A DNA stretch of 64,000 bases. It comes from an uncultured virus (IMG/VR IMGVR_UViG_3300030104_007230) (lineage: Duplodnaviria; Heunggongvirae; Uroviricota; Caudoviricetes). Under the pieces are notes generated by a model. The model saw only the letters and a list, made by a program, of their open reading frames with translations, did no database searches and had not been told where the DNA came from. The stretch covers positions 1 to 64,000 of the IMG/VR virus record IMGVR_UViG_3300030104_007230. One strand, 5' to 3'. Positions 2,141-18,999 of the stretch are shown here, one piece after another. Within the stretch, counting starts at the first letter, position 1; each line of letters starts with the position of its first letter. Made by a program: the position numbers and the translations under genes.

Positions 2141-2159
2141 CATTATTTACATTAGAAAA

Positions 2160-2315: not shown

Positions 2316-2352
2316 AAAAATAGTTTAAAATATTTATAGAAGCTTTAAATCT

Positions 2353-3504: not shown

Positions 3505-3512
3505 TTCTTTTT

Positions 3513-3725: not shown

Positions 3726-3743
3726 CTATGTCTACTCTACTCT

Positions 3744-4001: not shown

Positions 4002-4056
4002 TATAAAGAAGTTTTATATTCAACTTAAGATAGCATGATCGACTTATGTAAGCCAT

Positions 4057-5798: not shown

Positions 5799-5858
5799 TT
5801 TAATTAAGGTTTGTGGATTTTAAAATGAGGTCATAATTAATAATCTAAGTAGAAAGAA

Positions 5859-6521
5859 GTGACACTTCGTTTAGCAGGTAGTAACTCTTTACAAAGTTCA
5901 GCATTAACTTCACCTTCAGCAGTTGAAGCTTTTGGAAGAGCTTTAGGTAGAGCTGGTGAAATTATTTATCCAATGGCTAAAAAAGGGATACAAAAAATAG
6001 TAGATACAGAATACGGACCGCTTTCTTTAACAGTTGGAGATATGGGAGGAGTCAATGAATATGTAGATGCAGTTAGAACTACTTCTAAAATGCATGATTT
6101 AGTTACTCATAATCCAAATGTTTTAAATTCTTTAGAACAATTAGGCTCTAATTTAAAAGGAATAGGAAATACAATGTTTAGTTGGCATAAATCTACTGGT
6201 TATGATCCTTTAAAAGGACCAGGTAATATAGGAATTAAAGGTACTAAACATATAAAAGAAGCACTTTCTAATGCTTTTCATAAAGAAATAATTCCTGATT
6301 TGTTACATGCTAATCCTGGATCAAGTATATGGATTAGTAATGAACCAACATCGTTAAGCCGTGCTCGAACTTATGCTTCTACAAGGCTTCCAGGAGGACG
6401 TGCAATGGGTCCTTTAGATCCTACAGGTACACAGAATGCTTTAATTTTACCTTCAGGTAGAATCGCACCCTTTGAACTTATAGGTAAAGGAGTTCCTCAT
6501 CATTTGCAAAAATTTAGTTAA
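5859..6521 (+). CDS. Hypothetical protein, lone plus-strand gene inside the minus-strand block
   Basis: 220-aa ORF with phage-like codon use; CATAAT/TAATCT -10-like boxes upstream. Confidence 0.7.
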   Translation: MTLRLAGSNSLQSSALTSPSAVEAFGRALGRAGEIIYPMAKKGIQKIVDTEYGPLSLTVGDMGGVNEYVDAVRTTSKMHDLVTHNPNVLNSLEQLGSNLKGIGNTMFSWHKSTGYDPLKGPGNIGIKGTKHIKEALSNAFHKEIIPDLLHANPGSSIWISNEPTSLSRARTYASTRLPGGRAMGPLDPTGTQNALILPSGRIAPFELIGKGVPHHLQKFS

Positions 6522-6715
6522 GACCATTTTTTTTCTATTCTATTTCTAGAATTAGATGAGAGTGTTTTCTTTAGTTTTACACGATTCTTCCAAAGTTTAG
6601 TATCAAAATGTAAATCCATTCGTTTTTTTGACCAATACAAACCAATTATCCAGAAAGTAAAAAGAATACCTTCTAAATAAGTCATTGAATGCCAAGCTTG
6701 AGTTGCTCCTTCCAT
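6518..6715 (-). CDS. Small membrane protein
   Basis: One hydrophobic helix YLEGILFTFWIIGLYW and a basic tail. Confidence 0.65.
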   Translation of the reverse strand: MEGATQAWHSMTYLEGILFTFWIIGLYWSKKRMDLHFDTKLWKNRVKLKKTLSSNSRNRIEKKWS

Positions 6716-6717
6716 AA

Positions 6718-7125
6718 TTAAGTTTCTTTTTCAACTGTAACGTAAAGTTTTTCTGGTTTTCCTTCTGGAAAAAATTGATTAAATACAGGACATAACCATA
6801 TTTGCATATCAGCCCACTCTTCCCATGCATAAGGTTTGTAATTGCAACCACCATCTTTATCTTCAACATAATGAAGAGTTATATCAGCTGGTCTAGAAAG
6901 GACTGTATTACTAAAAGTTAATTTAATTTTATTAATAGAAGATTCTTGTCCGTATTTATTTTTTAATAAACGATTAACAAGCTCAGTAGCTTCTGGCATA
7001 AGAGGTTCATCTTTTACTGAAGAGCCATCTGAAAATGTGTAATCAAAGCACCAAAGATCACCCTGTTCACCAAAAGCATGATGCTTAGGTGTACATGTAA
7101 TTGAAATCATTGTGGAAGTTTGCAT
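6718..7125 (-). CDS. DUF6717-like protein
   Basis: WCFD...VKDEP...WLCPVFNQFFPEGKPEKLYV pattern. Confidence 0.6.
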   Translation of the reverse strand: MQTSTMISITCTPKHHAFGEQGDLWCFDYTFSDGSSVKDEPLMPEATELVNRLLKNKYGQESSINKIKLTFSNTVLSRPADITLHYVEDKDGGCNYKPYAWEEWADMQIWLCPVFNQFFPEGKPEKLYVTVEKET

Positions 7126-7246
7126 AATTTAAGTGTCAGCTCCAGTTAATAGAATCCAAAGCCAAGCCAATGCTAAGACTAGCGTAAGTAATTCAAAGAC
7201 AGGTGTTTCTAATTTTCCATTGTGAATTAAATATTCCATTAATGTT

Positions 7247-7420
7247 TTATGTATTTAATATCCAGATTAATCTAATAACCATACTGGTAAAGATGATGTA
7301 GTAGAGCCACATGATCCACATACCTAATTTGTTATGATGTGAACCTCGTTTATAAGGATGTACAGCTAAATGAGGAGATCTATCCCACCCATCTACCATG
7401 TAATCTTTAGTTTTAATCAT
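7247..7420 (-). CDS. Small membrane protein (57 aa)
   Basis: Hand translation MIKTKDYMVDGWDRSPHLAVHPYKRGSHHNKLGMWIMWLYYIIF... Confidence 0.65.
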   Translation of the reverse strand: MIKTKDYMVDGWDRSPHLAVHPYKRGSHHNKLGMWIMWLYYIIFTSMVIRLIWILNT

Positions 7421-7728
7421 TAGTATTCACCTTCATCATATTTAAGAGCTTTATCAGAGAAACTTGTTAGTTCCTCAATAACAGCATCAGGATGCCAATC
7501 TTTATTAATTGCATCCTCACCAAAAGCCAGATCATAAGCTTCGATTAAAAATGTCTTTACATACTCAAAGGCTTTCAAATTTTGAAAGTAGGGATGCTCT
7601 TCCCCTTCTTCTGCTTCATCCCAGTTTTCTATATCATCATCAAAGTCTTCTCTTTCTGAGTATTCTTCAACGAAATTAAAAAACTGGTTGATTGATTCGT
7701 GGATAGTAGGTTCGTCAGGATAACTCAT
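7420..7728 (-). CDS. Acidic hypothetical protein
   Basis: 102-aa ORF; C-terminal FLIEAYDLAFGEDAINKDW motif. Confidence 0.65.
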   Translation of the reverse strand: MSYPDEPTIHESINQFFNFVEEYSEREDFDDDIENWDEAEEGEEHPYFQNLKAFEYVKTFLIEAYDLAFGEDAINKDWHPDAVIEELTSFSDKALKYDEGEY

Positions 7729-7785
7729 GATTTAGGTAGTTTGCGATTGTTGTAGAACTTAATTTGGGATTCTGCGTTTTTATGT

Positions 7786-8016
7786 TTAATCATCTGGATA
7801 GTCACCAAGAGCGCCTTCTGTCATCACATCATATCCTGCTCTCCAATTTTCTTCTGAAGTAAAATAATCAGCAGTATGTGTTTGAGCAACTACATTACCT
7901 AATGTTTCTTCAATAGGTTTTGTAACTGTTTCACATTCTTTTCCTTTAACTCCTTGCACTGATTCTTTAACGTTACCGTCTTGATCAATTTTGTAGTGGA
8001 TAGTAGTTTGTTTCAT
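7786..8016 (-). CDS. DUF2997 family protein
   Basis: IHYKIDQDGNVKESVQGVKGKECETVTKPIEETLG...TADYF. Confidence 0.8.
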   Translation of the reverse strand: MKQTTIHYKIDQDGNVKESVQGVKGKECETVTKPIEETLGNVVAQTHTADYFTSEENWRAGYDVMTEGALGDYPDD

Positions 8017-9087
8017 TTTTCTATTTCTGTAATAGCGATTTGAAGTAGATTTTTATAACTTATTAATAAGGAAAGCTTGTCTTTACTGACATGAGCATCC
8101 TCTATTAATTTTGAAATAGTACGTCCGAGAACTTTTGATTCTGTTTTTGTTAGCTTTTCTTTTACAAATTGTTTCATTTGTTTATATCCATGTAGTGCTT
8201 CCACATTAAAAAATTAAATGCAAGAAGACTAACGACAGCAATGGAGCAAAAAATAAGTGGTACGTGCATTTTTAATAAGAAGTTCTTAGGACTGGTTTTT
8301 CTACTGTAGGAACAAATGTCTTGTCTTTAAACATTACAATTGAGCCTTTACATCCATTTTTAACATGGTAATAATCTAAAGTTTCAGCTTCACGAATAGC
8401 TTGTTCTTTAGAAAAGATGTGCATTGTAACGATAGGTAATTCTTTATCTTTTACATAAACACAAACCATGCGTGGTTCTTTATCATTTCTATCTATATAA
8501 GATTGATAAATGTTTTCCCACTTAGTTCTAGAGGAAGTTGTGCAATCCATTTTTTCCATAAATAATTTTTGGCATTAAAAAGCGCGATAAAAAATCACCG
8601 CGCATATTTTAAGATTAAAACTCGTTGATTCTTCCAATCAAAGGATCTTCTCGTTGCAGTTTTACATTTTCATAACCCGTCCAGTCTTCTGGATCAGTTT
8701 CATGCATAGCTGCTTGCTGTTCATCATAGTTATCAGCATAGAAAAGAGAAAGATCCACTTTTGCATCTTTAGAATAAGAGCTACACATTGTTGATGTCAT
8801 TTTATTAGGTCTTTAGCCATTTTATAAGCAGTATTCTTTATCTGATTTTGATAAGAATTAGTAGAAGCTTCTATTTCTTCTTCTCTTTCTTTTACTTTAG
8901 AAAGAATATCAGTATAAAAAGGTGTTCCAGGACCATAACGTTCAATTGTGTATTCTGGAAACGCTTTTAATATACGTTCTTTGTTTTCTGTACTTGCATA
9001 AGCAAGTGCTAGAGATAATGCTTTAACAAAAGAGCCACCAAAAGTAGCCATTCCATCACGCATTAATAATAATTCTTCAGATTTCAT
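8013..9087 (-). other. Four small hypothetical genes (8013-8204, 8272-8559, 8615-8800, 8797-9087)
   Basis: Co-oriented ORFs; 8797-9087 has the phage motif FGGSFVKAL..A..AS.EN..RI..AFPE. Confidence 0.6.
8577..8603 (-). terminator. Intrinsic terminator-like hairpin
   Basis: Minus strand GCGCGGTGAT-TTTT-TATCGCGC followed by TTTTT, just after the stop of 8615-8800. Confidence 0.55.
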
Positions 9088-9238
9088 TGGTGTGATAACA
9101 AAGAAATAAATCTAGGACTTATACATAGGGATCAAAGAACCCACTTGATGCCTAGTGTTAAATATCAAGGATGATTGATAGTGTTTTTAAGGAATATGTA
9201 TAGCAATATAACTATACATATCCAAACAATGAAAGAAG

Positions 9239-9484
9239 TCATTCCCAAATGTTAAATACATCTGTTTCACCTACTTGATAGTGGTTAACAGTTGTAGTAG
9301 AGCTACCTGTACTTAGTTGAATTACTTTATTTAAAGCAAGTTTAGTGACATGTGCAGTAAAACTACCAACAGGTGAGTTGATAATAGAAGTGCCAATAGC
9401 TCTAGCATTAAGAGGAGGAAGTTCTCCTGTCATAGGGTTGTACATTTTTAGATAGCAAAGGACAAATAAGACTTTTATAGTCAT
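9239..9484 (-). CDS. Hypothetical protein (start probably MTIKVLF rather than the track start)
   Basis: ORF 9239-9523 overlaps the upstream gene; the internal ATG fits better. Confidence 0.45.
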   Translation of the reverse strand: MTIKVLFVLCYLKMYNPMTGELPPLNARAIGTSIINSPVGSFTAHVTKLALNKVIQLSTGSSTTTVNHYQVGETDVFNIWE

Positions 9485-9498
9485 TCTCCAGGACTGGT

Positions 9499-9978
9499 TT
9501 AATGATTTATTTCGTGGTCCCAAGGATTAACTAATAAAGATACTCTTTTCCCTTGGTAATTCTCTACTGTGTGGTATTTTCCAGGAGGAAAAATCACAAG
9601 TCTATTAGTTTTTGGACTAATTATATAGTCATCTTCAATAAGTAGCTTTCCTCCTTCAAGATTTGAAACTTCTAGATAATAAACTGTTGAACAAATAGGA
9701 AAGACTAACTTCTTTTCCTTTTCAAAAAGCTTTTCATCTTTGTCATAATGCCAATTTGGTTTAGTACCATTGTGACCCCAAAATTCATAACCAACAGTTT
9801 TTGATAAATCGAAATAATTTGAGGCAATATTTAACATTTGAATACAAAAATCTTTGTATTTATGTTGATAATTAAGAGGATACCAATCTAAAGGAACAAG
9901 ATCTTCAGTTAAAAGTGAATTTAATTCTGATGGAATGTCATTTAAAACATTATCGAAAACTAATACTGAATTATTCAT
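9499..9978 (-). CDS. 2OG-Fe(II) oxygenase (prolyl-4-hydroxylase-like)
   Basis: HxD motif WHYDKDE, STVYYL...LEGGKL, PKTNRLVIFPPGKYHTV, distal R-x-S. Confidence 0.85.
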   Translation of the reverse strand: MNNSVLVFDNVLNDIPSELNSLLTEDLVPLDWYPLNYQHKYKDFCIQMLNIASNYFDLSKTVGYEFWGHNGTKPNWHYDKDEKLFEKEKKLVFPICSTVYYLEVSNLEGGKLLIEDDYIISPKTNRLVIFPPGKYHTVENYQGKRVSLLVNPWDHEINH

Positions 9979-10672
9979 CTAAATCTACCCAATTTAGTGG
10001 ATTAACTATACACATCTCATTATCTGAAGTAATACCTTCTTTACCTGTTATTAGAATGTCATATACAACTGAGTATCTTGGGAATTTTCCAAAATAAGGT
10101 TGAACACAATGGAATAAACTTGAAGGAAAGATGATAATTTTATTAACTTCTGGTGTGTAATTAATAGTTGTAAGACTTGGATAGGGAAGTTTATCTACAT
10201 AAGGTGCTAAAGGCACATACCATAAAGGATGAGTAAGAGGAGCTGTTATTTCTAATTCTCCTCCAGAAGATTCATCAACTTGAAGATAAAATATTACACT
10301 TAAATGTGAATTAAGATGGTTATGACGTTCAACAGCCTTACTAGCGTGATCTATTTTTCTTGTATCATCGCAAGCTACAATCCAAGATTTTGAAGAAAAT
10401 AGATTGAGATTGTTATAATCAACTCCAAATACCTCTAGATAGTTCTTGCAATGATTAAATACCTCTTTGTTTAACCATTTAAATTCTGGTTTATGAGCTA
10501 TTTGATAATCACCAGTAACATCTCCTGTTACATTTGCTGCGTCTTCTAATTTATCTTCATTATTTAGATGAAAATCCACTGCATATTGCAGCATTCTTTT
10601 ACTAACATTTCTTTCTGGTTCTAATGTTTCATCATAAATAACTGTAGGAAACCAAGATTTTAGTGCCATCAA
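9971..10672 (-). CDS. Putative 2OG-Fe(II) oxygenase (TIGR02466-like)
   Basis: WFPTVIY, HNHLNSHLSVIFYL, GGEL, IIIFPSSLFHCVQPY...RYSVVYD. Confidence 0.85.
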   Translation of the reverse strand: MMALKSWFPTVIYDETLEPERNVSKRMLQYAVDFHLNNEDKLEDAANVTGDVTGDYQIAHKPEFKWLNKEVFNHCKNYLEVFGVDYNNLNLFSSKSWIVACDDTRKIDHASKAVERHNHLNSHLSVIFYLQVDESSGGELEITAPLTHPLWYVPLAPYVDKLPYPSLTTINYTPEVNKIIIFPSSLFHCVQPYFGKFPRYSVVYDILITGKEGITSDNEMCIVNPLNWVDLDE

Positions 10673-10887
10673 AGATATGCTTTAGAAATATTCGTAGCAA
10701 ATCCTATTACAGTTACACCTGCAGCAATCACTGCAGCTGCACCTATCACCCATTTTTCTACTACTTTTAAACGTTCTTTTAAATCCTCTTGTTTCTCTTC
10801 TAAACGTTCAATTTTTAATTGCATTACAGTAATTTTTGTTTCCTGTGATGCATCAAGTCCTAGTTCTGTCATGGATAACACCTCCAA
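10669..10887 (-). CDS. Coiled-coil protein with C-terminal TM helix (XhlA/holin-like architecture)
   Basis: KIERLEEKQEDLKERLKVVEKWVIGAAAVIAAGVTVIGF. Confidence 0.55.
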   Translation of the reverse strand: MEVLSMTELGLDASQETKITVMQLKIERLEEKQEDLKERLKVVEKWVIGAAAVIAAGVTVIGFATNISKAYL

Positions 10888-11793
10888 GAGGTCCTCTAAA
10901 TGTTTCGTATTCTATTTGTAGTTTACCTTCTTTATAAACACGTGCTCGTGCTGTATAACGATGGCTCATTAAGCGAGCAAAACTCTGGCAACTATGCCCA
11001 TTAACAAAGCGAAAGGACTTAACAAGTGTTGATAGAGTGCACAACCATTTTCCTTCAGAAGTTTTACAAACCTTAGGAAGCAGCATTGCTATCTTGGAAT
11101 CTAATTCTTTCTTAGATTGTTTGTAATTGTAAGAACTAGCCATTGGTTTTTGATTCGTAGTATTCAGTAAGTTTGTTTTTCCAGTATTGCCTATCAGCAT
11201 CAGTAATCCAAGGATTGTGAACTTGAATACAGGCATGTTGTAACCATTCTTCTTCTTTTCTCTGATCTTTATCTGGAGTTTTAGAAGAGTCTTTCAAATT
11301 AAAAAGATTTAGGGTGAGTAACTACATCTCCTTTTATCTCTCCGATGTCATCGATGTGAGCGTGGTCAATTTGAGCATGGTCAATAGTGACATGAAAATC
11401 TTCTAAGGAATCAGCTATCCTTGTTAGAACTTTATCAAGTTTTTGCAAAGGAACTTCTTCATTAGAACTAATAGAAGAAGCTGCTTCTCGTTGTCTCATA
11501 TAATACTTAGCTGTGTAAGGAGTAATTGAGACTATTGCATAGTATTCAAAGTCATCAGGTACACCGCTATCGTTAGTATTTAGAAAGAAACAGACTTGCC
11601 AACCGCCTGTAGCAATGTCGATAGGACGACCGTGGCGCATTAACTCACATGTGGAATGACTTTTGATGTAAAGCATTTTGCTTTCTACATCAGGACTGCC
11701 TTGTGGATTAGCTACGCATAAAAATTCGGCAGCATCCTTTAGTTGTCTTTCATCAAAGCCCCACCAAATTGTGGGTTGATAGTCTAATTTCAT
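10853..11793 (-). other. Three hypothetical genes (MASSYNYK... from ~11143; a ~53-aa TTG-start ORF at ~11136-11297; 11299-11793)
   Basis: Track ORF 10853-11236 appears over-extended through a separate short ORF (KDSSKTPDKDQRKEEEWLQHAC...). Confidence 0.5.
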
Positions 11794-12245
11794 TGTTTAA
11801 TCTCCTGTTTAAATTTTTGAAGAGCGTCTTGTAAGATCATTTTTGCTACCGTAGCTTTACTTATAGAAGGACCTGGCCCTCCTGACAAAGAAAATTTAAT
11901 ATTATTAAATACAGTGCTATGTACTTTTTCATCTACAAGATCAGTAATCTCTTCTAGTAATTTATAAAATTCATAATCTAGACGTAGATTTAACTGTCTC
12001 TTTTCAGCAGCTTTTCCACGTACAATAGTTAATTGTATTTCTTCAGAAGTTATATTAAAGTCTGAAAGTAATTTACAAATTTCAAATTTCTTTATACCAA
12101 AATGTATTGATAAATCAGTTATACTTTCACCTTCGTTGAAGCGTTCTATAATTTTCTCCATATTTATAGTACGTGTAGGTGAAGGTTTCTTCATATAATC
12201 TTTTCGAAAAGCCTTAGCCAAATGTTGTTTAGTTGAGTTTTCCAT
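11790..12245 (-). CDS. Putative transcription regulator, HTH plus ribbon-helix-helix
   Basis: IIERFNEGESITDLSIHFGIKKFEICKLL (HTH); KRQLNLRLDYEFYKLL...SKATVAKMILQDAL (RHH-like). Confidence 0.6.
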   Translation of the reverse strand: MENSTKQHLAKAFRKDYMKKPSPTRTINMEKIIERFNEGESITDLSIHFGIKKFEICKLLSDFNITSEEIQLTIVRGKAAEKRQLNLRLDYEFYKLLEEITDLVDEKVHSTVFNNIKFSLSGGPGPSISKATVAKMILQDALQKFKQEIKQ

Positions 12246-12507
12246 GATTTAGTTTATAAAGCGAAGAACTAATGATAATAATCAAGGATAAATATCCTAT
12301 TAGATCTGAATAATCCATCATTTAAAGCCAAATAATAAGAATAAGGAAAGAATTATGGAGATAGATTCCATAATTGCACGTAGTAGTAGCAAGGGAACTG
12401 AGTTTGTCATAATAATGTGCAGTCACTGAAGACTGCTGAAAATCTAATAGACTTTAAGCAACCATCAAGTACCTTTTAATACTTTGGAATCATTAAGCAA
12501 AGATAAA

Positions 12508-12538
12508 GAGCCAGAGAAGAAGATCTCCCCTGGCTTTT
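12508..12538. terminator. Hairpin AGCCAGAGA...CCCCTGGCT, possible bidirectional terminator or processing stem
   Basis: Inverted repeat directly after the stop of 12542-12796, with U-rich flanks. Confidence 0.45.
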
Positions 12539-12541
12539 AAC

Positions 12542-12796
12542 TTAAGAAGTAGCGTAGCCTTTCAGATTAATTCCAATATTATTCTGAAGCTTGTACCCTT
12601 TCTTTAATAAATTAGCAACCGACATTCTAATTACCTTTAAAGGTGCTTCTAGTCGGATGTATTTAGATGTTGCAGTAGCAGGATCGATGTTAGTCATTTC
12701 TGCAAAGCAACGATTATCATCAGAACTATCACGTCTTACTGTTACCAGAAAAGCATCGTGGTCATTCTTCTGATAGATAAAAGATTCAGTAGTCAT
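12542..12796 (-). CDS. Hypothetical early protein (start MTTESF)
   Basis: The track N-terminus MRDSPSLCT is a read-through of the repeated leader element. Confidence 0.65.
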   Translation of the reverse strand: MTTESFIYQKNDHDAFLVTVRRDSSDDNRCFAEMTNIDPATATSKYIRLEAPLKVIRMSVANLLKKGYKLQNNIGINLKGYATS

Positions 12797-12810
12797 AAGA
12801 CTAATTGTAG

Positions 12811-12878
12811 GTGTACAAAGGGAGGGTGAGTCCCTCATGGAGTTAACTCTTTCGAGAATAACTCCAAGAGAAAATCAA
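12811..12878 (-). repeat. Structured leader, family I copy 1 (long hairpin plus CTTTGTACAC box)
   Basis: TGATTTTCTC-TT-GGAGTTA-TT-CTC-GAAA-GAG-T-TAACTCC-AT-GAGGGACTCA-CCCTCC-CTTTGTACAC; box ends 14 nt before ATG. Confidence 0.85.
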
Positions 12879-12892
12879 ACATTCAGCAATAA

Positions 12893-13249
12893 TTAGGGCT
12901 TCATAGGAGTATCATCAGTCCAATGATCAATCTTGTTAATATCTAATATGAACCAAAATTGGTTCTTTAATCTATTCCAAAAAGAATAAGATTTGATAGG
13001 TTTAGAAATAGATTTCCATTGGGAAGCTCTGCCTCTGGTGGATGCATACCAGAAACCTTGCTTTTCATCAAATTTGTCTGGATTAAAACCTGCTTCTCTA
13101 GCTTCGTATGGAAGAGGTTTGTTAAACATCCAATCAAATGATGTATTAATCTCTTTATTAGCCCATTTACTGAAAGCAAGAGCTTCTTCTTTCGTTTGAA
13201 ATTTGATACGTTCTCTTTCAACGAAAGTTCCGTAAACGTAATAAGACAT
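12893..13249 (-). CDS. Hypothetical early protein (start MSYYVY)
   Basis: ATG lies 14 nt after the CTTTGTACAC box, the same spacing as copy 1. Confidence 0.65.
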   Translation of the reverse strand: MSYYVYGTFVERERIKFQTKEEALAFSKWANKEINTSFDWMFNKPLPYEAREAGFNPDKFDEKQGFWYASTRGRASQWKSISKPIKSYSFWNRLKNQFWFILDINKIDHWTDDTPMKP

Positions 13250-13263
13250 TAGATAAAATTTAA

Positions 13264-13324
13264 GTGTACAAAGGGATGGTGAGTCCCTCAGTCTGCCCCC
13301 GAAGGAGCAGAGGGAGAGAATCAA
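13264..13324 (-). repeat. Structured leader, family I copy 2
   Basis: TGATTCTCTC-CC-TCTGCTCC-TTCG-GGGGCAGA-CT-GAGGGACTCA-CCATCC-CTTTGTACAC; different upper stem with a UUCG loop. Confidence 0.85.
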
Positions 13325-13467
13325 GTTTCAGTCTTAGAGATTGTATTTTGGATACGTTTCCAAATACGCTCTTTAGCTCTTTCCATTTCCACAGCATTAA
13401 GAACACGCTTTGGCAGTAAAGACCTTAAGAAATCCTCTTCAACATCTTGAAAACTACGTTTAGTCAT
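13321..13467 (-). CDS. Small basic protein (48 aa)
   Basis: Hand translation MTKRSFQDVEEDFLRSLLPKRVLNAVEMERAKERIWKRIQNTISKTET; its TGA starts the family I stem. Confidence 0.6.
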   Translation of the reverse strand: MTKRSFQDVEEDFLRSLLPKRVLNAVEMERAKERIWKRIQNTISKTET

Positions 13468-14102
13468 TTAACTTCCACAGTTTCGATACGATGTTTCATA
13501 TCTTGTAGCCAATTAGAAACTTTAGGTGCAAGATCTGCATAAACTTTCTTGGCATCAGCTACTAAATCATTCCATTCCTTACTATGTTCATCAACACGTA
13601 GTTTCAAATCGCTTTGATAACTAAGTCGTTGATTCCCAAAGAATGGAATGACTTGTGGAACTCCTTGCTTAAGAGAAGCAATATGTTCTTCTAAGTTTGT
13701 AATTTTGGCTTCTAAAGCAGCCGTCTTTTGTGCATCCATTTCGTTTAGTTTAGTCATTAGTAATTCAGCTTTCTTCTTTCCAGAATAAGCGAAGGATAGT
13801 TCAACAGCTTGTGCTGTTAATACTTTATCCTTCTCTACTAACGCTTCACTAGCAGACTTAAATGCTTTATAAAACGATAATTTAGACCCTTTCTGATACT
13901 CAGGTAGCTTATTTAGCTCTTGAGATTCAGTAAGAGGTTTCTTCTTACTATTAAATGTCTCTTCTTTAATAGTGTCTAATTCTAATACTGGACTAGGTTC
14001 TATTAAAGATGACTTTTCAGTAGTAACAGAGGTGTCAGCCACAACTGAAGCTAAAGAAGTATGTTGTCTTCTTGCTCGCTTGGAGGATGATCTTCGTGAC
14101 AT
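13464..14102 (-). CDS. Coiled-coil hypothetical early protein
   Basis: 212-aa ORF, Arg-rich N-terminus, heptad-like central region. Confidence 0.7.
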   Translation of the reverse strand: MSRRSSSKRARRQHTSLASVVADTSVTTEKSSLIEPSPVLELDTIKEETFNSKKKPLTESQELNKLPEYQKGSKLSFYKAFKSASEALVEKDKVLTAQAVELSFAYSGKKKAELLMTKLNEMDAQKTAALEAKITNLEEHIASLKQGVPQVIPFFGNQRLSYQSDLKLRVDEHSKEWNDLVADAKKVYADLAPKVSNWLQDMKHRIETVEVK

Positions 14103-14122
14103 AAGTCAGAAGGCAAAGGACA

Positions 14123-14149
14123 TGAGCAGTTTGAAGACTTGCTCAGGTC
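14123..14149 (-). ncRNA. H-type pseudoknot module (family III copy 1)
   Basis: GAC-C-TGAGCA-A-GTC-TTCAAAC-TGCTCA: S1 GAC/GTC, S2 TGAGCA/TGCTCA. Confidence 0.7.
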
Positions 14150-14152
14150 AAA

Positions 14153-14197
14153 AGTTGAGGGAGGAATTGAACCTCCCCAAAGTCACTAGACTCAACT
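14153..14197 (-). ncRNA. tRNA-like T-loop three-way junction (family II copy B)
   Basis: AGTTGA-GTC TAGT GAC-TTT-GGGGAGG TTCAATT CCTCCC-TCAACT, 5 nt after the SSB stop codon. Confidence 0.75.
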
Positions 14198-14202
14198 CAC
14201 TG

Positions 14203-14565
14203 TTATGAAACAGCAGCAGTTTCGTTAGCTTCAGCACGTTGTGCTTTGCTAACTTCACCAAGGCGTAGAGTTGTAGGAGCATCAGTTACGATAACTTCCA
14301 TACGACTACGACGTTCACCATCTTGTGACTCCCAGGTCTTATAACGAAGCCTGAAAGTTACAGCGATTGTGTCACCTTGGTTATAACGATTAAGAATGCT
14401 GTTACCAATACCGTTATATGCAGTAAGAGGTAAAGCAGATTCTTCATCTGAACTGCCAACTGGCTTAATTCGAAACTCAGTTACAGTCAAAGAACCTTTA
14501 GGATTCTTCTGTGTAATTGGTGAGACGATAGTGCCAGTGATACCACCGAAGTTGGTAGAATTCAT
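14203..14565 (-). CDS. ssb: Single-stranded DNA-binding protein (OB fold)
   Basis: N...ITGTIVSP...VTEFRI...LTAYNGIG...QGDTIAVTFRLRYKTWESQDGERRSRMEVIV; GGAG upstream of ATG 14565; lacks the acidic DDDIPF tail. Confidence 0.85.
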   Translation of the reverse strand: MNSTNFGGITGTIVSPITQKNPKGSLTVTEFRIKPVGSSDEESALPLTAYNGIGNSILNRYNQGDTIAVTFRLRYKTWESQDGERRSRMEVIVTDAPTTLRLGEVSKAQRAEANETAAVS

Positions 14566-14581
14566 GGATAAACTCCATAAG

Positions 14582-14656
14582 GTGTACAAAGGAATAGAAA
14601 ACTATTCCAAGAACTGAAGGAGGAATTGCACCTCCTTAAAGCCTCTAGGCTCAGTC
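14582..14656 (-). ncRNA. tRNA-like T-loop junction (family II copy C, 14612-14656) plus hairpin and CTTTGTACAC box
   Basis: GACTGA-GCC TAGA GGC-TTT-AAGGAGG TGCAATT CCTCCT-TCAGTT, then GGAATAG-TTTT-CTATTCC-TTTGTACAC; compensatory changes versus copy B in all three helices. Confidence 0.75.
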
Positions 14657-14658
14657 TG

Positions 14659-15093
14659 TTAATAGCCTCGATAATCATCAAGGTTATCTACAGGATTCTC
14701 GAACTCATCTAGTTCTTCTGAATACCAAGCCATGTGATAACGTACAAAACCTACAATTTGCTCCCATGTCATATGATCCATAGGAGATTGCGGAGCTGTA
14801 CCAGATGCCAAACACATAACTTCATATGTAGTCGGATCTGCTGCTAATCCAAGGTTTCCATGTATTCCACTCTTATTGGGAGGCATGGTAACGATAGATA
14901 GCTTCAAAGGACCATATTGGTATGTCAAACGATAGCGAATACAACCACTTTCGTTACAACAAGTGAAATCCGAGGGTGTTACTTCATAAATAGGCTTAGA
15001 AGTAACAGGGATCTTTTGCATGGGCATTAGATCAAGTGGACTACTCTCAGTGAGTAGTAATGCCATGCCAGGAGATTTGATCTCCCAGCTCAT
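14659..15093 (-). CDS. Hypothetical early protein
   Basis: 144-aa ORF; its TAA begins the TAACAG that precedes family II copy C. Confidence 0.65.
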   Translation of the reverse strand: MSWEIKSPGMALLLTESSPLDLMPMQKIPVTSKPIYEVTPSDFTCCNESGCIRYRLTYQYGPLKLSIVTMPPNKSGIHGNLGLAADPTTYEVMCLASGTAPQSPMDHMTWEQIVGFVRYHMAWYSEELDEFENPVDNLDDYRGY

Positions 15094-15095
15094 GC

Positions 15096-15338
15096 TTATG
15101 ACATGGCAGATTCAGTACAAGACATCTCTTCATAGAAATCTTGCATAATCAAATCAATATCTTTTATAGATAAATGACATGCTTGTTGAATAGGTTTTGT
15201 ATCTATACAAACAGGCTCACCTCTATAATTAAATCTCCAATAAGACATAAAAGTTACACCTGGTTTGACTGGATACTCAACCCAGTCTTTAACTTTAGGT
15301 CTTGGATAAGATAAAGATTTGTAAGTAACAGTTGCCAT
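15096..15338 (-). CDS. Hypothetical early protein
   Basis: 80-aa ORF downstream of family I copy 3. Confidence 0.65.
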   Translation of the reverse strand: MATVTYKSLSYPRPKVKDWVEYPVKPGVTFMSYWRFNYRGEPVCIDTKPIQQACHLSIKDIDLIMQDFYEEMSCTESAMS

Positions 15339-15346
15339 AGTAAATA

Positions 15347-15418
15347 GTGGGCAAAGAACAAGGGAGTGAATCCCTCATGGAGCCAACTCTTTCGAGAATG
15401 ACTCCAGGAGAAAGTCAA
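15347..15418 (-). repeat. Structured leader, family I copy 3
   Basis: TGACTTTCTC-CT-GGAGTCA-TT-CTC-GAAA-GAG-T-TGGCTCC-AT-GAGGGATTCA-CTCCC...CTTTGCCCAC; the TGA is the upstream stop codon. Confidence 0.85.
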
Positions 15419-15726
15419 GAAGCTACTCCAGCTGAAGTTTCTTCTGATTTATCAGCTATAAAGTCAGGCACTACAACTACATTCTGCTTTGCAGCTTTAG
15501 CAGTTGTCTTCTTAGCACGAGGCTTTCTAGTTGACGTAGCCTTTCCAGGCTTCTTCTCATCTTCAGGTCTGATTAGATCAGCAAGTTTAATCCTGCTATT
15601 TCTAATCTGAGTTTTCACAGTGGCATGTAACTTAGATTTCTCCTCTTTATCAGATTTGATATAAGCCCATGTAGCTGCTCCAACTCCTATGCTCACAGAA
15701 GCGAGCAAAACGAAAGAAGTTTTCAT
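15415..15726 (-). CDS. First early gene: N-terminal TM helix plus Lys/Ala-rich histone-H1-like tail
   Basis: MKTSFVLLASVSIGVGAATWAY...KKPGKATSTRKPRAKKTTAKAAK. Confidence 0.7.
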   Translation of the reverse strand: MKTSFVLLASVSIGVGAATWAYIKSDKEEKSKLHATVKTQIRNSRIKLADLIRPEDEKKPGKATSTRKPRAKKTTAKAAKQNVVVVPDFIADKSEETSAGVAS

Positions 15727-15746
15727 GGTGAAAGATGTAAAGAACA

Positions 15747-15826
15747 TAAATAGTTTTAAGACATATTCAGGTCAAGACCGAGTAAAGGAATCGAACCTTC
15801 CTAGTCTTTCGACTAGCCATCTCGGT
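15747..15826 (-). ncRNA. tRNA-like T-loop junction (family II copy A, 15777-15826) followed by a pseudoknot (family III copy 2, 15747-15773)
   Basis: ACCGAG-ATGG-CTAGTC GAAA GACTAG-G-AAGG TTCGATT CCTT-TA-CTCGGT, then GAC-C-TGAATA-T-GTC-TTAAAAC-TATTTA. Confidence 0.75.
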
Positions 15827-15841
15827 TACTCATTCAGGTAC

Positions 15842-16050
15842 TTTCCAGTCGTGGACTAGAAAAATAGACGCAGGCTTATTAAGTTACCTGCTACTTATGT
15901 AAGTTATACAGAAAGATCAAAAACCTAACTATCACTAGTCTTATAGGTTTTCCACACGTTCTGCCGAACATAAGACCTTTCAAGAAAGGCGACTCATCTT
16001 CAGGCGGCCCCATCCCATCTAAGATGAGAAAGTGACGAGAAGATAGGGAC
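15842..16050 (-). ncRNA. Multi-helix structured leader or ncRNA at the start of the early transcript
   Basis: Helices CTCATCTT/AAGATGAG, GCCTTTC/GAAAGGT, GTCTTAT/ATAAGAC crossing AAAACCT/AGGTTTT, GCAGG/CCTGC, TTTCTAGTC/GACTGGAAA; no ORF in the track. Confidence 0.55.
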
Positions 16051-16462
16051 ATTTAGGGGTAAAAAAGGCATAAATACCTAGTTTTATACCAAAATGAGTC
16101 ATTATTCATTCATTTGTGATGCGTTAAAACTTTCCACGATGAAGTTTTACTAATACAAAACAAATTAAAAGAGGAATAAATCCTTTACTTAAAGACTTAT
16201 TCTCTTTAGTTTTGAACGTAGTCATAATTAAAAGAATAATTACATTAAAAAAAATAGAACTCCTTCGCTTCGCTACAGGTACGGACGTTGGATGCATACC
16301 ACCGTCCTCTTTCTTTTTTTTCTCTCAGCAACACTCTTAAAGAGTATTACTCCAGATGTAAAAACGAGATTTCACCCCAAATTGGTAGTTTTAATGGAGG
16401 TTTGGGGGTAATTAGTAGGTTGGTACAACTTAAAATTAATAAATCAAGCGTTTTATAGATAG

Positions 16463-18999
16463 ATGCCCGTATCTCCACAAGAATTTTCGCTCTGGGCGAA
16501 GATGACAGGTCGTAAATATCCTAATTCTTTACAAGAAAAGGCCGAATTAGCTCCTGAAGTACATATTTTCAACCAAAATGTGGGGAAACAAGGGGGAATA
16601 GGGGTAAATGAGGTCGAAATTCCCAATACTTTCAATTCTTCTGGCACACAAACGGTAGAAACAACTTCACCGACCATGAACGATGAAAATCCTGAAAATA
16701 AAGAGAATTTAGGTTCAAATTTAGGCTCAAAATTAGCAAAGAGTGCTTTGATCGCAGGAGGACTTGCCGCGGGGGTCGCTGCCGCACGTAATCCAGGTGT
16801 ACAAGAGGTAGTGAAGAATACATCAGAAAAAATTGGCGATTTTATATCTAAATTTACTGATCCACGTGAAATAAACATCGATACTCTAGAAGCGGCGCAA
16901 GATATAACAAATTCAGCACCTTCAGATATATGGGATCAAGCAGATGTATATTCTCAAACAAGACCGTTTGATGGGGGCTTTTCTGAGCCTAATATTGATC
17001 CTTGGGCTGGTCCTGAGACAAGATCTTCTAGATTATTAAGGGGAACAGGGATTGGAGGTGCAGGAGATAAAGCAACAGCATTACTTGCTGAAATTAGTGA
17101 AAAATACCCTGAATCTGCTACATCTGGTGAATATGTACATCCATCACGTATTTCTGGGATGCCAGGGGGCGATTATCGTGGAAGAAGAATCACTTATAGC
17201 CCTGAACAAAAAGAAGCATTTAATTTAACAAAACAAGAAGCAGATACAAGAGCAATTTTAGGTAATGAAGGGGAAATTCCTCCTGGAATGCTTACTAAAG
17301 AACAACAGGCTTATTTGAAGCTTAATGAGTTAGGTGGAGAAACATTACAAGCTGGTAAAAAAAGAGATTTAGCTAATGTCGAAGCTTCAGGGGAGTCTGG
17401 GGTATCAGGGGGTTCTGGCGGAACTGGACAGAAAAATTTAAGTGGTCAAGCAGATGACTTCATTGGAAAAATGCAAGGACCAATGCCTCCTGAAATAAGT
17501 CTTAAAGAAGCTAATTCAATGCAAGAAGATAGACATAGCATGGAAAGAGAATATCGTGATAAATTTATTTTAGAAAATAGAGAAGCTATCGAGAGAGGTG
17601 ATATAGATCCTTATTCAGAACAACATTTCTTTAATCAACCTAGTTTGAGTGATATTTATCCAAATCCTTGGGCAGAAGATCATGAAGACATAATAAGAGA
17701 TGCAGTAAGGTATGAAGGAGCAACAGGATATAAAGATAGAGATCGAGTTAGTGGCTATAAATATGCAGATATTCAAGATAAGTTAAATGAACTAAGTGGA
17801 AAAGTTGATCCTGCTAGACAAGAAATACTTGACATTGTTTCAACAGGAGAATTTGCAAGAGGAAATAGAGAGGCTATGGCAAGAAATGTATGGGAAGCAA
17901 ATCTAAAAGAAAAAAGTCTAAGTGAAAAAGCTGATGCAGTAGTCGATGCAATAGTTGAATCACATTCAGATTTTGGAAATGTAACTTATAACGAACCTGA
18001 AGCCATAGAATCAGCTAAAGCACATTATGGCGAAAATCCTGTAAATACGGCACTTATCAGTCCAAATACACCTGGAAATAGTGTTGTAACGATTGATTCA
18101 ACAAATGATCCAACAACATCAACAGGACAACATCAAATCAAGTTAGATGCAGATNNNNNNNNNNAAGAGCAGAACTTGGTGCAAAAAGAGCACAAATAGC
18201 TGAAAATACTGGTTTATCAAATCCAGCTGTAGATCGTTTCTTGGGACAATACTTCCCATCTATGACAGAAACATATAGTGATGTAGATATTGCATCTGGA
18301 AGAACTCCTGAAAGAACATTTTCTAATGTTGGACCTGAAGCTGAAATAACAAAAGCTGCTAGTGGCGGAGCTATTCGAGGACGTTCAAGAGTACAGGATT
18401 ATGAAGTTAGTCAAGATCGTACAAGAGATATTTCACCAGAACCAGAAGAACTAAGAGGTACTCCTTTAGCAGAACAAAGACCTGACATTATTGGTGGAAA
18501 ATTAGCGCTTGGTGGTGTTCCTGGAGATTTAGATACAGATCAGATGTCAAAACAAGAAGTTATTCAATCAATTATTAATCCTTCAACTGTAGATCTTAGA
18601 GATAAAACTCCTATTGCAGGAACTGGAGTTTATGGGAGAGAGAAAGGATATGTTTCAGGTGCGATGAAAGCTTCAGGAGATTATTCTGATGCCGCAATGA
18701 GAAAGCCAACTGATCTTTCTCCAGCAGAAACAAGGTATGACAGCTTTATTAAAGATCCTTATGGAGGACTTTCTGATAAAGCATTAGAAACACATATACA
18801 AAGTGCTACACCTGATTCACCTTCACAGAAAGGATTAGAGCGTGAAGCCTATAAACGAAGTGGTACTGGTATTCCTATTTCTCAAAAAATGAGAGAAATT
18901 CATACAACAGGAGATCCTTTAACAAGAAGCGAACGTGCACAAACTTTTCTTGATGAACTAGATCCAACAGGAGAACTTCGTAAAAGAAATTTAGGTTAA
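16463..18999 (+). CDS. Large acidic low-complexity virion/internal protein; one gene split by the assembly gap
   Basis: After the N-run the frame ...RAELGAKRAQIAENTGLSNPAVDRFLGQY is open straight into track ORF 18241-18999. Confidence 0.7.
18155..18164. other. Assembly gap (10 N)
   Basis: nnnnnnnnnn in the sequence. Confidence 1.

Follow-up and report, generated by a model that had tools for sequence, protein, structure and literature searches.

In the early transcript of phage T7, RNase III cuts irregular intercistronic hairpins of ~20 bp, and the upstream mRNA keeps a hairpin at its 3' end. In plant mitochondria, t-elements are associated with mRNA ends and, in the part of the report available to us, are taken as likely signals for RNase Z and/or RNase P (PMC1920247). 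It has also been described, in the available portion of another report, that a folded viral RNA is able to halt bacterial RNase J1 (PMC5760640).

The window (the whole stretch of 64,000 nt that was analysed) derives from an 86-kb S-EIV1-like marine cyanophage; a psbA gene and a glutamine-II riboswitch are present and point to a cyanobacterial host. The first leftward unit lies on the minus strand from ~16100 to 12509 and has six spacers made of repeated modules. We interpret these spacers as RNA elements that punctuate, in cis, a single polycistronic message of the phage, which would be cleaved and protected at them; the chances that this interpretation is right appear to us evenly balanced. 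The structures, their conservation, order and spacing, and the mosaicism of relatives at them are directly observed. An initial annotation had described six minus-strand spacers built from reusable modules, and all four of its module classes were found where it had placed them, confirming the observation; its overall interpretation is partly supported, cleavage being a model-based element. The unit contains:

15890-15748, minus strand, spacer S1 of the first leftward unit
15414-15339, minus strand, spacer S2 of the same unit
14658-14566, minus strand, spacer S3 of the same unit
14202-14103, minus strand, spacer S4 of the same unit
13320-13250, minus strand, spacer S5 of the same unit
12892-12797, minus strand, spacer S6 of the same unit
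12509..12535, minus strand, terminator-like hairpin of 12 pairs followed by a T-rich tail, closing the unit

The modules were absent from all other minus-arm spacers of at least 35 nt in 1-12540 and are confined to this unit. No sigma-70-like consensus was detected in any spacer (5 kb scanned; 6 sites vs 14.1 expected). Because the spacers lack this promoter consensus and a terminator-like hairpin is located at 12535-12509, the unit looks like a single transcript. Among sequencing runs recorded as RNA, none contained this stretch. It is presumably early, judging by gene size and position. PHROGs and Pfam were blank for nine of its ten scanned ORFs; the ORF starting at 14565 matched the SSB family.

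Four tRNA-like three-way junctions were identified, T1, T3 and T4 in spacers and T2 across a gene boundary:

15777..15826, minus strand, T1: 6-bp acceptor-like stem, 6-bp arm with GAAA loop, T arm, loop UUCGAUU (folding)
15062..15107, minus strand, T2: 8-bp closing stem, 14-nt connector, T-like arm, loop AUCAAAU (folding, relatives)
14611..14657, minus strand, T3 in spacer S3, T loop UGCAAUU (folding, relatives)
14582..14608, minus strand, plain 7-bp hairpin (14608-14591), then box CTTTGTACAC (14591-14582)
14152..14198, minus strand, T4 in spacer S4, T loop UUCAAUU (folding, relatives)

The three spacer junctions had been annotated initially; with T2 (15107-15062), whose connector contains the stop TAA (15098-15096) and the ATG of the next gene (15093), the count becomes four. 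Folded alone, T1 formed a three-way junction at -19.1 kcal/mol (z -2.64); T2 reached -20.7 kcal/mol (z -3.42; 0/200 shuffles as good) and T4 -18.6 kcal/mol (z -2.66). Compensatory changes in relatives bear out the earlier statement that pairing is kept despite differences in sequence. All of 117 cells (100%) were paired in the T2 family, with three pairs double-changed (nine distinct rows, close relatives), and 97.7% of 128 cells in the T4 family, with four double-changed pairs over all three helices (eight distinct rows); slid controls for both families gave at most 61%. The acceptor strand was paired at 7/7 positions in 35 of 48 distinct tRNA-like copies, compared to one of 48 for a neighbouring control 7-mer. 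The covariation in this family and in the long hairpins represents few independent events among close relatives. The motif GGTTCRATTCC, with up to one mismatch, occurs six times in the window vs 1.38 expected (0/100 shuffles reach 6), and three of the six matches are the tRNA-like spacers.

In these look-alikes the acceptor/T-arm stack measures 11-13 bp, CCA is not encoded, a D arm and an elbow are missing, and two of the four T loops are off-consensus. ARAGORN called no tRNA at the modules. In the Rfam search suggested by the annotation, no module of the unit reached threshold; the best match, T1 to tRNA-Sec, scored 25.2 bits (E 0.077), under the gathering score of 47. This weak match, together with T arms near the tRNA consensus, would fit decayed tRNA genes or attP (integration-site) fragments. 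Such an origin has, in our opinion, a very slim chance of being correct: there are four paralogous copies and many in relatives, compensatory changes keep the acceptor strands paired though D and anticodon arms are missing, and every copy is found at a gene boundary on the sense strand, most being followed by the same 28-nt element.

Two copies of that element were found in the unit:

15748..15775, minus strand, P1: TTGACCT, 5-nt stem, NGTCNNNAAAC, 5-nt stem, directly 3' of T1
14124..14151, minus strand, P2: second 28-nt copy, directly 3' of T4

The element follows 35 of 47 distinct tRNA-like copies, its GAC beginning 3-4 nt (30 copies) or 7-8 nt (5 copies) past the 12-nt 3' strand; the plain hairpin at 14608-14591 sits where relatives have it. 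The search pattern excluded the 3' stem strand, and across the 90 distinct copies 92% of the cells of the 5-bp stem are paired. Double-changed stem cells number 49, compared to 16.2 +/- 3.3 in shuffles (0/500 reach 49). One pair is U-G in 34 of 90 rows, which favours the minus strand. For the element to be a knot, GAC would have to pair with GUC; this pairing is invariant, and a scan for a GAG variant gave 23 matches, none with at least four of five stem pairs; the GAC/GUC letters are themselves constrained, and the knot is predicted. Both copies annotated as 'pseudoknots' are present (15775-15748 and 14151-14124), but this phage is not the only one to carry the element, whose family is very widespread among phages of great diversity. 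In other phages, 22 of 83 copies are located 8-45 nt ahead of an ORF start vs 61 of 415 random positions, and tRNAs stand beside the element at five of 60 loci. With so few copies near ORF starts or tRNAs, it is not simply a leader cap.

TTGACC shares five of six letters with the -35 hexamer TTGACA, and the modules have to be considered as transcription signals, i.e., promoters with TTGACC as -35 box, terminators/attenuators or antitermination RNAs. The position of the hairpins after stop codons and, in other phages, of the 28-nt element ahead of tRNA arrays and a ROOL RNA would agree with such roles. We regard them as very unlikely. Besides the lack of a promoter-like consensus in the spacers, the letters 17 nt past TTGACC form the covarying stem and -11 there is mostly G, the hairpins have no following T run, and on the other strand the U-G pairs become A-C mismatches.

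The remaining spacers carry long hairpins and a small hairpin 2 with a box:

15367..15417, minus strand, H1: 20 bp (structure A), stop UGA paired with UCA at the base, GAAA loop (folding)
15360..15376, minus strand, alternative hairpin 2 (GAGGGA/UCCCU) and box TGTTCTTTGC at 15360-15351 (folding, box match)
13280..13323, minus strand, H2: 17 bp, stop UGA in the base, UUCG loop (folding)
13264..13289, minus strand, hairpin 2 (13289-13271) and box CTTTGTACAC (13273-13264); start codon 13249
12827..12877, minus strand, H3: 20 bp, GAAA loop (folding)
12811..12836, minus strand, hairpin 2 (12836-12818) and box CTTTGTACAC (12820-12811); start codon 12796

As annotated, S2, S5 and S6 each hold a long hairpin: the MFE fold including the stop codon is one irregular hairpin of 17-20 bp, with UGA at the base paired to UCA of the next loop and with loops GAAA, UUCG and GAAA, respectively. 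The single hairpin has -24.4 to -24.6 kcal/mol vs -20.5 to -22.6 for the two-hairpin alternative; for H2 the z-score is -3.58 (0/200 shuffles as good). In size, the long hairpins match T7-type RNase III sites. Their base is paired in 87% of cells vs 34-56% in slid controls, with double changes in five cells at two pairs, four of them from the two-row L005/L394 lineage. One pair is U-G in 32 of 33 rows, again favouring the minus strand, and S2, S5 and S6 fold better on that strand (-22.6, -22.0 and -25.1 vs -16.0, -17.3 and -24.1 on the plus strand). The claimed preference of the folds for minus-strand RNA therefore holds for the G-U pairs and the three hairpin spacers but not for S3 and S4, where both strands are about equal in stability. 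Two relatives have hairpin 2 and the box without the long hairpin, which we count against the cleavage reading.

In S2, S3, S4 and S5 (four of six) the structure starts no more than 5 nt from the upstream stop codon, in agreement with the annotation; in S6 it starts ~16 nt past it. Between the second-half structures and the AUG lie unstructured, pyrimidine-rich leaders of ~20 nt that lack a Shine-Dalgarno sequence:

14100..14123, minus strand, 21-nt leader holding box TGTCCTTTGC; start codon 14102
15724..15747, minus strand, pyrimidine-rich leader with TGTTCTTTAC box and likely start codon 15726-15724 (sequence reading, box match)

In the first gene, relatives' proteins align from the second Met, and its true start is probably 15726, not 15747. 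The ATG at 15747 directly adjoins P1. The box reported 8-16 nt before ATG codons was recovered: CTTTGTACAC occurs exactly three times in the window vs 0.11 expected (0/100 shuffles reach 3), each time 14-16 nt upstream of an ATG, and CTTTGCCCAC of S2 lies 8 nt upstream of its own. In the window, both 28-nt elements end 21 nt upstream of what is probably the AUG, and the same gap separates each of the three small hairpins from its own AUG, hairpin 2 of S2 ending 21 nt upstream of the ATG at 15338.

Such spacing might indicate that the modules govern translation, not cleavage. A ribosome terminating at a stop codon in the base of a long hairpin must melt that hairpin, and GAGGGA could then re-pair with downstream UCCCU; structure ~20 nt before the AUG could be a platform or insulator setting initiation of Shine-Dalgarno-less cistrons or, alternatively, an operator for a phage RNA-binding protein. 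The stop codon is indeed paired in the MFE folds of S2 and S5, the gap remains 18-21 nt in seven H spacers of the window and relatives (read by eye), and the central segment can pair with either of two partners but not with both at once; the two partners change with it in the L005/L394 lineage (TCTTGCA / TGCAGGA / TCCTGCA) and again in L004 (CTCTGT / ACAGGG / CCCTGT). Coremin RNA blocks scanning ribosomes and stimulates frameshifting, according to the available parts of two reports (PMC10520033, PMC10321173). However, -20 to AUG is single-stranded in both folds, so that the switch would not obviously gate initiation; the UGA in the S6 hairpin base is not the gene's stop, which is TAA at 12895-12893; the tRNA-like modules have no evident translational role; and PHROGs and Pfam revealed no candidate RNA-binding regulator, most scanned ORFs being blank. 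Translational control is, on this evidence, an unlikely main function.

The annotation also suggested that the repeats act as recombination points for gene shuffling, and relatives do show mosaic recombination exactly at the modules. Upstream of SSB, four junction types occur, one of them a chimera whose joint falls inside the T arm; between the same two flanking gene families, at least four unrelated upper hairpins are found; and the interval bounded exactly by T2 and the following module either contains a 144-aa gene or lacks it. The modules could thus be mainly recombination cassettes, moving or swapping accessory genes with RNA folds secondary, as promoter-early stem-loops (PeSLs) do in T4-type phages in the available part of that study (PMC2839356). 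As the sole function this appears improbable, somewhat more so than translational control: recombination alone leaves compensatory changes, one-strand G-U pairs, tetraloops and fixed start-codon spacing unexplained, and the 28-nt element is conserved far beyond this phage group. It is otherwise compatible with punctuation, and sequence comparisons support the view that the conserved module cores also provide homology for recombination swapping genes and hairpins among related phages.

Under mRNA punctuation, the first half of each spacer (stop-codon hairpin of 17-20 bp or tRNA-like acceptor/T-arm junction) would serve the upstream cistron, and the second half (GAGGGA/UCCCU hairpin, 28-nt TTGACC element or plain hairpin) the downstream cistron. 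Host RNase Z, possibly RNase P, may cut the CCA-less tRNA look-alikes, and RNase III or RNase E the long hairpins. After cleavage, the upstream piece would terminate in a folded 3' structure and the downstream structure would stand at the extreme 5' end of the next piece, where it could block decay that depends on the 5' end (by RNase J as exonuclease or by RNase E through 5' sensing); in hairpin spacers the cut might release GAGGGA to refold with downstream UCCCU. No RNase III or metallo-beta-lactamase nuclease domain was detected among the phage proteins, whereas both were found in a Synechococcus control genome; processing would therefore depend on enzymes of the host. If this is true, one long message is cut by host enzymes into protected single-gene pieces.

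The long hairpins share with T7 RNase III sites the irregular ~20-bp form between cistrons of one early transcript. They differ in being anchored on the stop codon, in combining a conserved lower stem with a freely exchanged upper stem, in a lower-stem 3' half that can refold into a second hairpin, and in that, this phage encoding no RNase III, the candidate nuclease comes from the host. Like t-elements in the accessible part of Forner et al. (2007; PMC1920247), the tRNA-like modules are non-decoding tRNA-like structures at mRNA boundaries; however, they sit in a DNA phage of bacteria as putative cleavage sites, retain only an acceptor/T-arm junction plus a short additional arm, and are usually followed directly by the conserved 28-nt element. 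The core of this element resembles the plant-virus coremin exonuclease-blocking RNA. As far as the available parts of the coremin reports describe (PMC6546385, PMC10321173, PMC10520033), coremin (xrRNA-C) and its Watson-Crick variant share with it a 3-bp G/U/C stem, a linker ending in AAAC (commonest phage variant GUUAAAC or AUUAAAC), pairing of the hairpin loop with letters immediately 3' of AAAC, and a total of ~28 nt. By the same sources, the phage stem is GAC/GUC instead of GUC/GAC, its 8-nt loop fails the coremin rule (YGAD or YGNNAD), its second stem has 5 bp vs 3, no conserved second hairpin (hp2) is seen after it, and the putative nuclease, for a resistance that is itself putative, is host RNase J, not Xrn1. 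PeSLs, in the available text of Arbiol et al. (2010; PMC2839356), likewise recur as small cassettes between accessory early genes, and it is at these cassettes that related phages have whole genes inserted, deleted or replaced relative to one another. A PeSL, by that account, consists of a sigma-70 promoter and a terminator, whereas the modules described here, without promoter consensus or T tract, are tRNA-like, knot-like and long-hairpin RNA folds.

The viral record comprises 86,161 bases, is rated complete (CheckV), and has the window as its first 64 kb. It encodes a large terminase, a portal-like protein of 741 aa, a major head protein, tail fibres, and two 2OG-Fe(II) oxygenases. Among 50,697 phage records the portal had a single match, Synechococcus phage S-EIVl, at 52% identity; blastn of the module region against 50,697 phage records returned zero matches. 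The closest DNA relatives of the record come from ocean metagenomes. A psbA-type photosynthetic reaction-centre gene (L423; Photo_RC 290.6 bits, 367-aa open frame) supports a cyanobacterial host. Based on this gene, the portal identity, and a glutamine-II riboswitch (Rfam 68 bits, E 2.7e-14), the record was assigned to an S-EIV1-like cyanophage. The riboswitch aptamer, on the plus strand, lies inside a 560-nt piece of the leftward arm without a leftward ORF. A context of ~50 nt is common to positions 593-601 of the window and 85433-85441 of the whole record (G000), i.e., near both record ends, which suggests a terminal repeat or a circularly permuted assembly, though the IMG/VR class is linear without end repeats. 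Short N runs occur at ~18170 of the window (inside a 578-aa ORF, 16463-18199) and at ~85130 of G000. Genes are directed leftward from ~16300 and rightward from 16463.

Features of the leftward unit and of the record (window positions unless stated)
65414-66313 of G000, outside the window, minus strand: psbA-type photosynthetic reaction-centre gene
2078-2140, plus strand: glutamine-II riboswitch aptamer
15890-15748, minus strand: spacer S1, with tRNA-like module T1 (15826-15777)
15775-15748, minus strand: 28-nt element P1, directly after T1
15747 or 15726 to 15415, minus strand: ORF, 110-aa membrane-like protein
15414-15339, minus strand: spacer S2, with a long hairpin
15338-15096, minus strand: ORF, 80-aa protein
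15107-15062, minus strand: tRNA-like module T2
15093-14659, minus strand: ORF, 144-aa protein
14658-14566, minus strand: spacer S3, with tRNA-like module T3 (14657-14611)
14565-14203, minus strand: SSB (Pfam SSB 28.7 bits, PHROG 44)
14202-14103, minus strand: spacer S4, with tRNA-like module T4 (14198-14152)
14151-14124, minus strand: 28-nt element P2, directly after T4
14102-13464, minus strand: ORF, 212-aa protein
13467-13321, minus strand: 48-aa ORF
13320-13250, minus strand: spacer S5, with a long hairpin
13249-12893, minus strand: ORF, 118-aa protein
12892-12797, minus strand: spacer S6, with a long hairpin
12796-12542, minus strand: ORF, 84-aa protein

A scan of 12000-17000 for sigma-70-like consensus sites detected six, versus 14.1 +/- 4.0 in shuffles, and none within the spacers. 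Terminator-like hairpins on the strand of the unit, within it or at its end, were found at 12535-12509 (12 pairs, directly 3' of the last gene) and 12436-12419 only, neither of them in a spacer. Below 12535-12509 the leftward arm has other kinds of spacer, none with these modules. Because no sigma-70-like site lies in a spacer, a terminator-like hairpin stands at the end, and the spacers beyond are module-free, the simplest reading is a single polycistronic leftward unit of ~3.6 kb; we infer that it is expressed early. A search of sequencing data for positions 12500-16400 returned none recorded as RNA, and one contig set of unspecified kind that contains 0.25 of the sampled words.

The minus-strand spacers had been described in the initial annotation as assembled from repeated structured RNA modules. 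The spacers are indeed connected in pairs by direct repeats (76 nt at 78% identity, 47 nt at 83%, 46 nt at 78%, and 37 nt at 78%), and the long hairpins, tRNA-like modules, 28-nt elements, and a box are all present. The box CTTTGTACAC, proposed to precede the ATG, has exactly three occurrences in 64 kb, against 0.11 expected. With Rfam 15 at gathering score, the sole match in the whole window was Glutamine-II at 2078-2140 and none fell on the modules. In 20 related or motif-bearing loci only tRNA, tmRNA, and ROOL matches were detected, none overlapping modules.

Three tRNA-like junctions had been proposed. Folds confirmed those in S1, S3, and S4, and the count rises with a fourth at 15107-15062. 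Folded in isolation, each module has a closing stem (6-8 bp) and a T-like arm whose loop is 7 nt long, with a short connector or arm between them; energies range from -16.3 to -20.7 kcal/mol, and z from -1.4 to -3.4. The closing stem stacked on the T stem gives 11-13 bp, in keeping with the tRNA acceptor/T-stem stack of about 12 bp. T1 and T4 have canonical T loops of the UUCRANY type; those of T3 (UGCAAUU) and T2 (AUCAAAU) are off-consensus. The folds contain no D arm and no anticodon arm, and so form no cloverleaf. ARAGORN detected no tRNA genes in the window; Rfam at E <= 10 returned, on the modules, only tRNA-Sec for T1 (25.2 bits, against a gathering score of 47). An encoded CCA is absent from all four window copies.

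Relatives were sampled with the SSB protein, which retrieved three close viral contigs and 22 metagenome loci. A single MAFFT alignment of all tRNA-like types placed the 5' strands out of register; pairs were counted on two homogeneous families instead. In the T2 family (nine distinct rows) 117/117 cells were paired, compared to 34-55% in slid controls, and both sides had changed at three pairs (G-C to A-U, U-A to A-U, and G-C to A-U). The S3/S4 family (eight distinct rows) had 97.7% of 128 cells paired, with slid controls at 45-61%; four pairs were changed on both sides, at least one in each of three helices. The seven letters after the T stem had a fully complementary upstream partner in 35 of 48 distinct T-arm-anchored copies; the next 7-mer had one in 1/48 and the reversed 7-mer in 16/48, so this measure is noisy with G-U pairs allowed. 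The relatives thus show, in samples that are small, related, and short of R-scape-grade statistics, that module pairing is retained.

The 28-nt element consists of TTGACCT, a 5-nt stem strand, a core, and the second 5-nt stem strand. It had been listed as a pseudoknot family in two copies, and both were recovered, directly after T1 and T4. Our search pattern held TTGACCT, GTC, and AAAC constant, along with three letters in the 5' strand of the stem, and thereby imposes the invariance of AAAC. It matched at least 118 very diverse viral contigs, including 40-kb prophage-like records and phage tRNA arrays. No Rfam family for the element was found in the window or in 20 loci. Among the matches listed, the five letters after AAAC, which are outside the pattern, pair 5/5 with the 5' strand in 63 of 88 distinct copies and 4/5 in 19 more, and the letter after AAAC, also not in the pattern, is U in at least 90% of 90 copies. 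In a 90-row alignment of the matches listed, 92% of the cells of the 5-bp stem were paired; 49 cells were changed on both sides, versus 16.2 +/- 3.3 in shuffles (0/500) and 13 in the top slid control. One stem pair is U-G in 34 of 90 rows among the matches listed and would be A-C on the other strand, which argues that the folded molecule is the sense RNA. A reading of TTGACC as a promoter was rejected: no spacer holds a sigma-70-like site, and the element has a covarying stem instead. Its T-R-A is a stop codon (UGA/UAA) in all collected copies, with R and A forced by the pattern.

The other, putative pairing of the element, GAC with GUC, which would make it a knot, is invariant on both sides. 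A scan for GAG variants gave 23 matches, none with at least four of five pairs in the other stem, i.e., chance matches. A copy with GAG/CTC instead of GAC/GTC was observed in L082 (minus strand, ~2461), where a standard copy follows ~50 nt downstream; no other candidate for a compensatory change in the GAC/GUC pairing was seen.

In the window and its relatives, the 28-nt element follows the tRNA-like module in 35 of 47 distinct copies, and the gap from the 12-nt 3' strand of the module to GAC is 3-4 nt in 30 copies and 7-8 nt in five. Of the remaining copies, eight have a plain hairpin in the same place and four have something else, including the 144-aa gene. A pattern joining the T arm to TTGACCT matched 117 loci, two with the full element, both from one already sampled relative. 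In other phages, among the matches listed, an ORF start lies 8-45 nt after the element in 22 of 83 copies (16 at 19-26 nt), compared to 61/415 at random positions, and tRNA genes stand beside it in only five of 60 loci, where it sits between tRNAs. A shield for the 5' end of a message makes little sense there. The general job of the element may therefore be broader; it might, for example, mark a boundary or form a roadblock in either direction. In records of ~40 kb (L039, L046, L051, L058, L059, L065, and others) the element lies mid-genome with no ORF start nearby and is followed by a conserved stretch, a T run and then GTATGCCCTTATGAGAGGCGAACTCG, which may be another RNA or a packaging-region signal.

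The long hairpins (H1-H3, in S2, S5, and S6) share one order. A pyrimidine run (consensus GAYTCTCTCC) begins at or right after a UGA and leads into a stable hairpin of variable sequence, looped by GAAA or UUCG; the 3' part is (A)CTGAGGGAYTCA, a short loop remainder, TCCCT, and the box, TGTYCTTTGC or CTTTGTACAC. Including the stop codon, the minimum-energy fold of each spacer is a single irregular hairpin of 17-20 bp with small internal loops, in which GAGGGAYUCA is the partner of the UGA and its pyrimidine run (-24.4, -24.6, and -24.5 kcal/mol). The alternative fold, a small hairpin of GAGGGA with downstream UCCCU, is 1.8-4.1 kcal/mol less favourable; the small hairpin stands 21 nt before the AUG in the three window spacers and 18-20 nt, by eye, in four spacers of relatives. 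A 33-row alignment of the base helix, in which eight rows are pattern matches from other phage groups that share the architecture and one variant row is misaligned, had 87% of cells paired versus 34-56% in slid controls. Both-side changes were confined to five cells at two pairs, four of them from a two-row TGCAGGA lineage (L005/L394). The pattern TCTCTCCC...TGAGGGA matched at least 114 loci, with the whole architecture in eight among the matches listed; generic descriptors, one of a hairpin pair preceding an ATG and one of triple complementarity, matched mostly by chance in this AT-rich DNA and yield candidate lists only. Two other readings were rejected: GAGGGA as a Shine-Dalgarno site, because both folds pair it and its distance to the AUG is ~32-38 nt, and a pyrimidine-purine-pyrimidine triple helix, because the variants in L005 and L004 are not homopurine.

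In the window, 21 nt separate each 28-nt element from its start codon (15726 for P1, 14102 for P2), and the leaders after them open with the same box as those after the small hairpins. Leaders to the AUG are ~20 nt, unstructured, and Shine-Dalgarno-less. Judging from module order and spacing, each cistron is preceded by a small hairpin, a 28-nt element, or a plain hairpin, and then a leader; 3' of each cistron is a different structure class, a long hairpin or a tRNA look-alike. The 5' leader upstream of T1 (16052-15891) shares a conserved block, GGCC..GATCAGTCGC..CTTTC..GGCAGAAG..TGTGGA, with a distant relative (L005:1440-1868); the 53-aa ORF called in this leader is probably not a gene but a piece of the folded leader. 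Long first-gene leaders of relatives (L003:3000-3248 and L004:836-1304) carry three or four copies of a further short repeat of the type AGCTGGAC-GTTAAAC-GTAGC, which has the GTTAAAC core of the 28-nt element but is nested, not knotted. The first-gene leader of the window is without this repeat.

It had also been suggested that the modules serve as recombination points for gene shuffling, and the relatives agree with this. Four arrangements were found upstream of the same SSB leader: T3 with a plain hairpin, after the 144-aa gene; T2 with the 28-nt element, after the 80-aa gene; T2 with a plain hairpin; and a chimera of a T4-type 5' half and a T3-type 3' half, joined in the common T arm. The 144-aa gene starts within T2, and its presence or absence between relatives breaks exactly there. 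Where the flanking genes are the same, at least four unrelated sequences occur as the upper part of the long hairpin, on a constant lower stem. In relatives without the 144-aa gene, the ATG in T2 starts an ORF of 13 codons whose stop is the UGA in the 28-nt element (L003:3912-3960, TTGACCTGA). In the more distant relatives L005 (4388-4536) and L394-L397, with SSB 63-65% identical, SSB is followed by a GC-rich terminator-like hairpin and a T run, which replace the tRNA look-alike and the 28-nt element.

The layout is as expected for endonuclease cleavage between the halves of every spacer. Structure at a 5' terminus is the classical shield against 5'-end-dependent decay (RNase E, RNase J). In our favoured reading, whose chances we consider evenly balanced, host nucleases would cut within the spacers and the downstream structure would shield the resulting 5' end. 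If the 3' side of the long hairpin were cut, GAGGGA could pair with UCCCU at the new 5' end, and RNase Z cutting behind the CCA-less tRNA look-alike would make the 28-nt element the 5' terminus of the following piece. Neither an RNase III nor a metallo-beta-lactamase nuclease domain was detected in the phage, so the cuts would depend on host enzymes; both domains are present in the Synechococcus control genome. Bacterial RNase J1 can be stopped in vitro by a folded viral RNA (PMC5760640). The surroundings of the 28-nt element in other phages, described above, complicate this reading, and so do the look-alikes, which are without the D-loop/T-loop elbow that is read by RNase P and of which two in four have off-consensus T loops.

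A more specific version, in which host RNase Z cuts the CCA-less look-alikes and a coremin-like 28-nt knot forms the exact 5' end and stops RNase J, seems to us rather doubtful. If it is true, an exoribonuclease-resistant RNA and a tRNA-punctuated mRNA would each be described for the first time among bacteria and their viruses, and the knot would be a universal phage device found in hundreds of unrelated phages.

No report of this toolkit combination in a bacterial virus, or of the 28-nt family, was found in the literature covered, largely open-access, and the letters of the motif led only to unrelated eukaryotic papers; the initial annotation likewise knew of no system with the combination. 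If the general proposal of cutting and shielding is true, phages split and stabilise multi-gene messages with portable RNA parts, borrowing host tRNA-processing and decay enzymes, and the 28-nt element would be small enough for a practical mRNA-stabilising part. The modules also mark swap sites of accessory genes, which ties message organisation to genome evolution.

Known analogues exist for all the ingredients: t-elements and tRNA punctuation, T7 RNase III sites, coremin, and PeSLs. As with t-elements and tRNA punctuation, a tRNA-like fold stands at a cistron boundary, all four modules lying between or across a stop and the next start. H1-H3 resemble T7-type RNase III sites in being intercistronic irregular hairpins of about two helical turns. 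PeSLs mediate gene shuffling in T4-type phages (PMC2839356), and here too gene gain, loss, and replacement between relatives are bounded by cassettes; however, the strong sigma-70-like promoter and terminating stem-loop of PeSL cassettes are absent from the phage spacers. Coremin is described as a hairpin of 3-4 bp with a YGAD loop, a 10-nt spacer with essential A16-A20, and a required second hairpin (PMC6546385); the loop rule is YGAD or YGNNAD (PMC6546385, PMC10520033), and in a Watson-Crick variant loop letters 6-8 pair with spacer letters 18-20 (PMC10321173). The phage element shares a putative 3-bp G/U/C stem, a RUUAAAC-U linker whose AAACU region corresponds to the essential A16-A20, and loop-to-tail pairing like that of the Watson-Crick variant, with a stem of 5 bp versus 3 bp in the viral RNA. 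Its loop of 8 nt (CU, five stem letters, and N) on that 3-bp stem breaks the loop rule, and no second hairpin was evident by eye downstream of the two window copies. Because loop rule, stem polarity, stem length, and the apparent absence of a second hairpin set it apart, the phage element is not a member of the coremin family; we hypothesise that it may nevertheless work like coremin. The principle of such message division and stabilisation has precedents in the tRNA punctuation of mitochondria, the RNase III sites of T7, and the exonuclease-resistant RNAs of eukaryotic RNA viruses, and the 28-nt element would, if the proposal is true, carry exonuclease-blocking RNAs over to bacteria.
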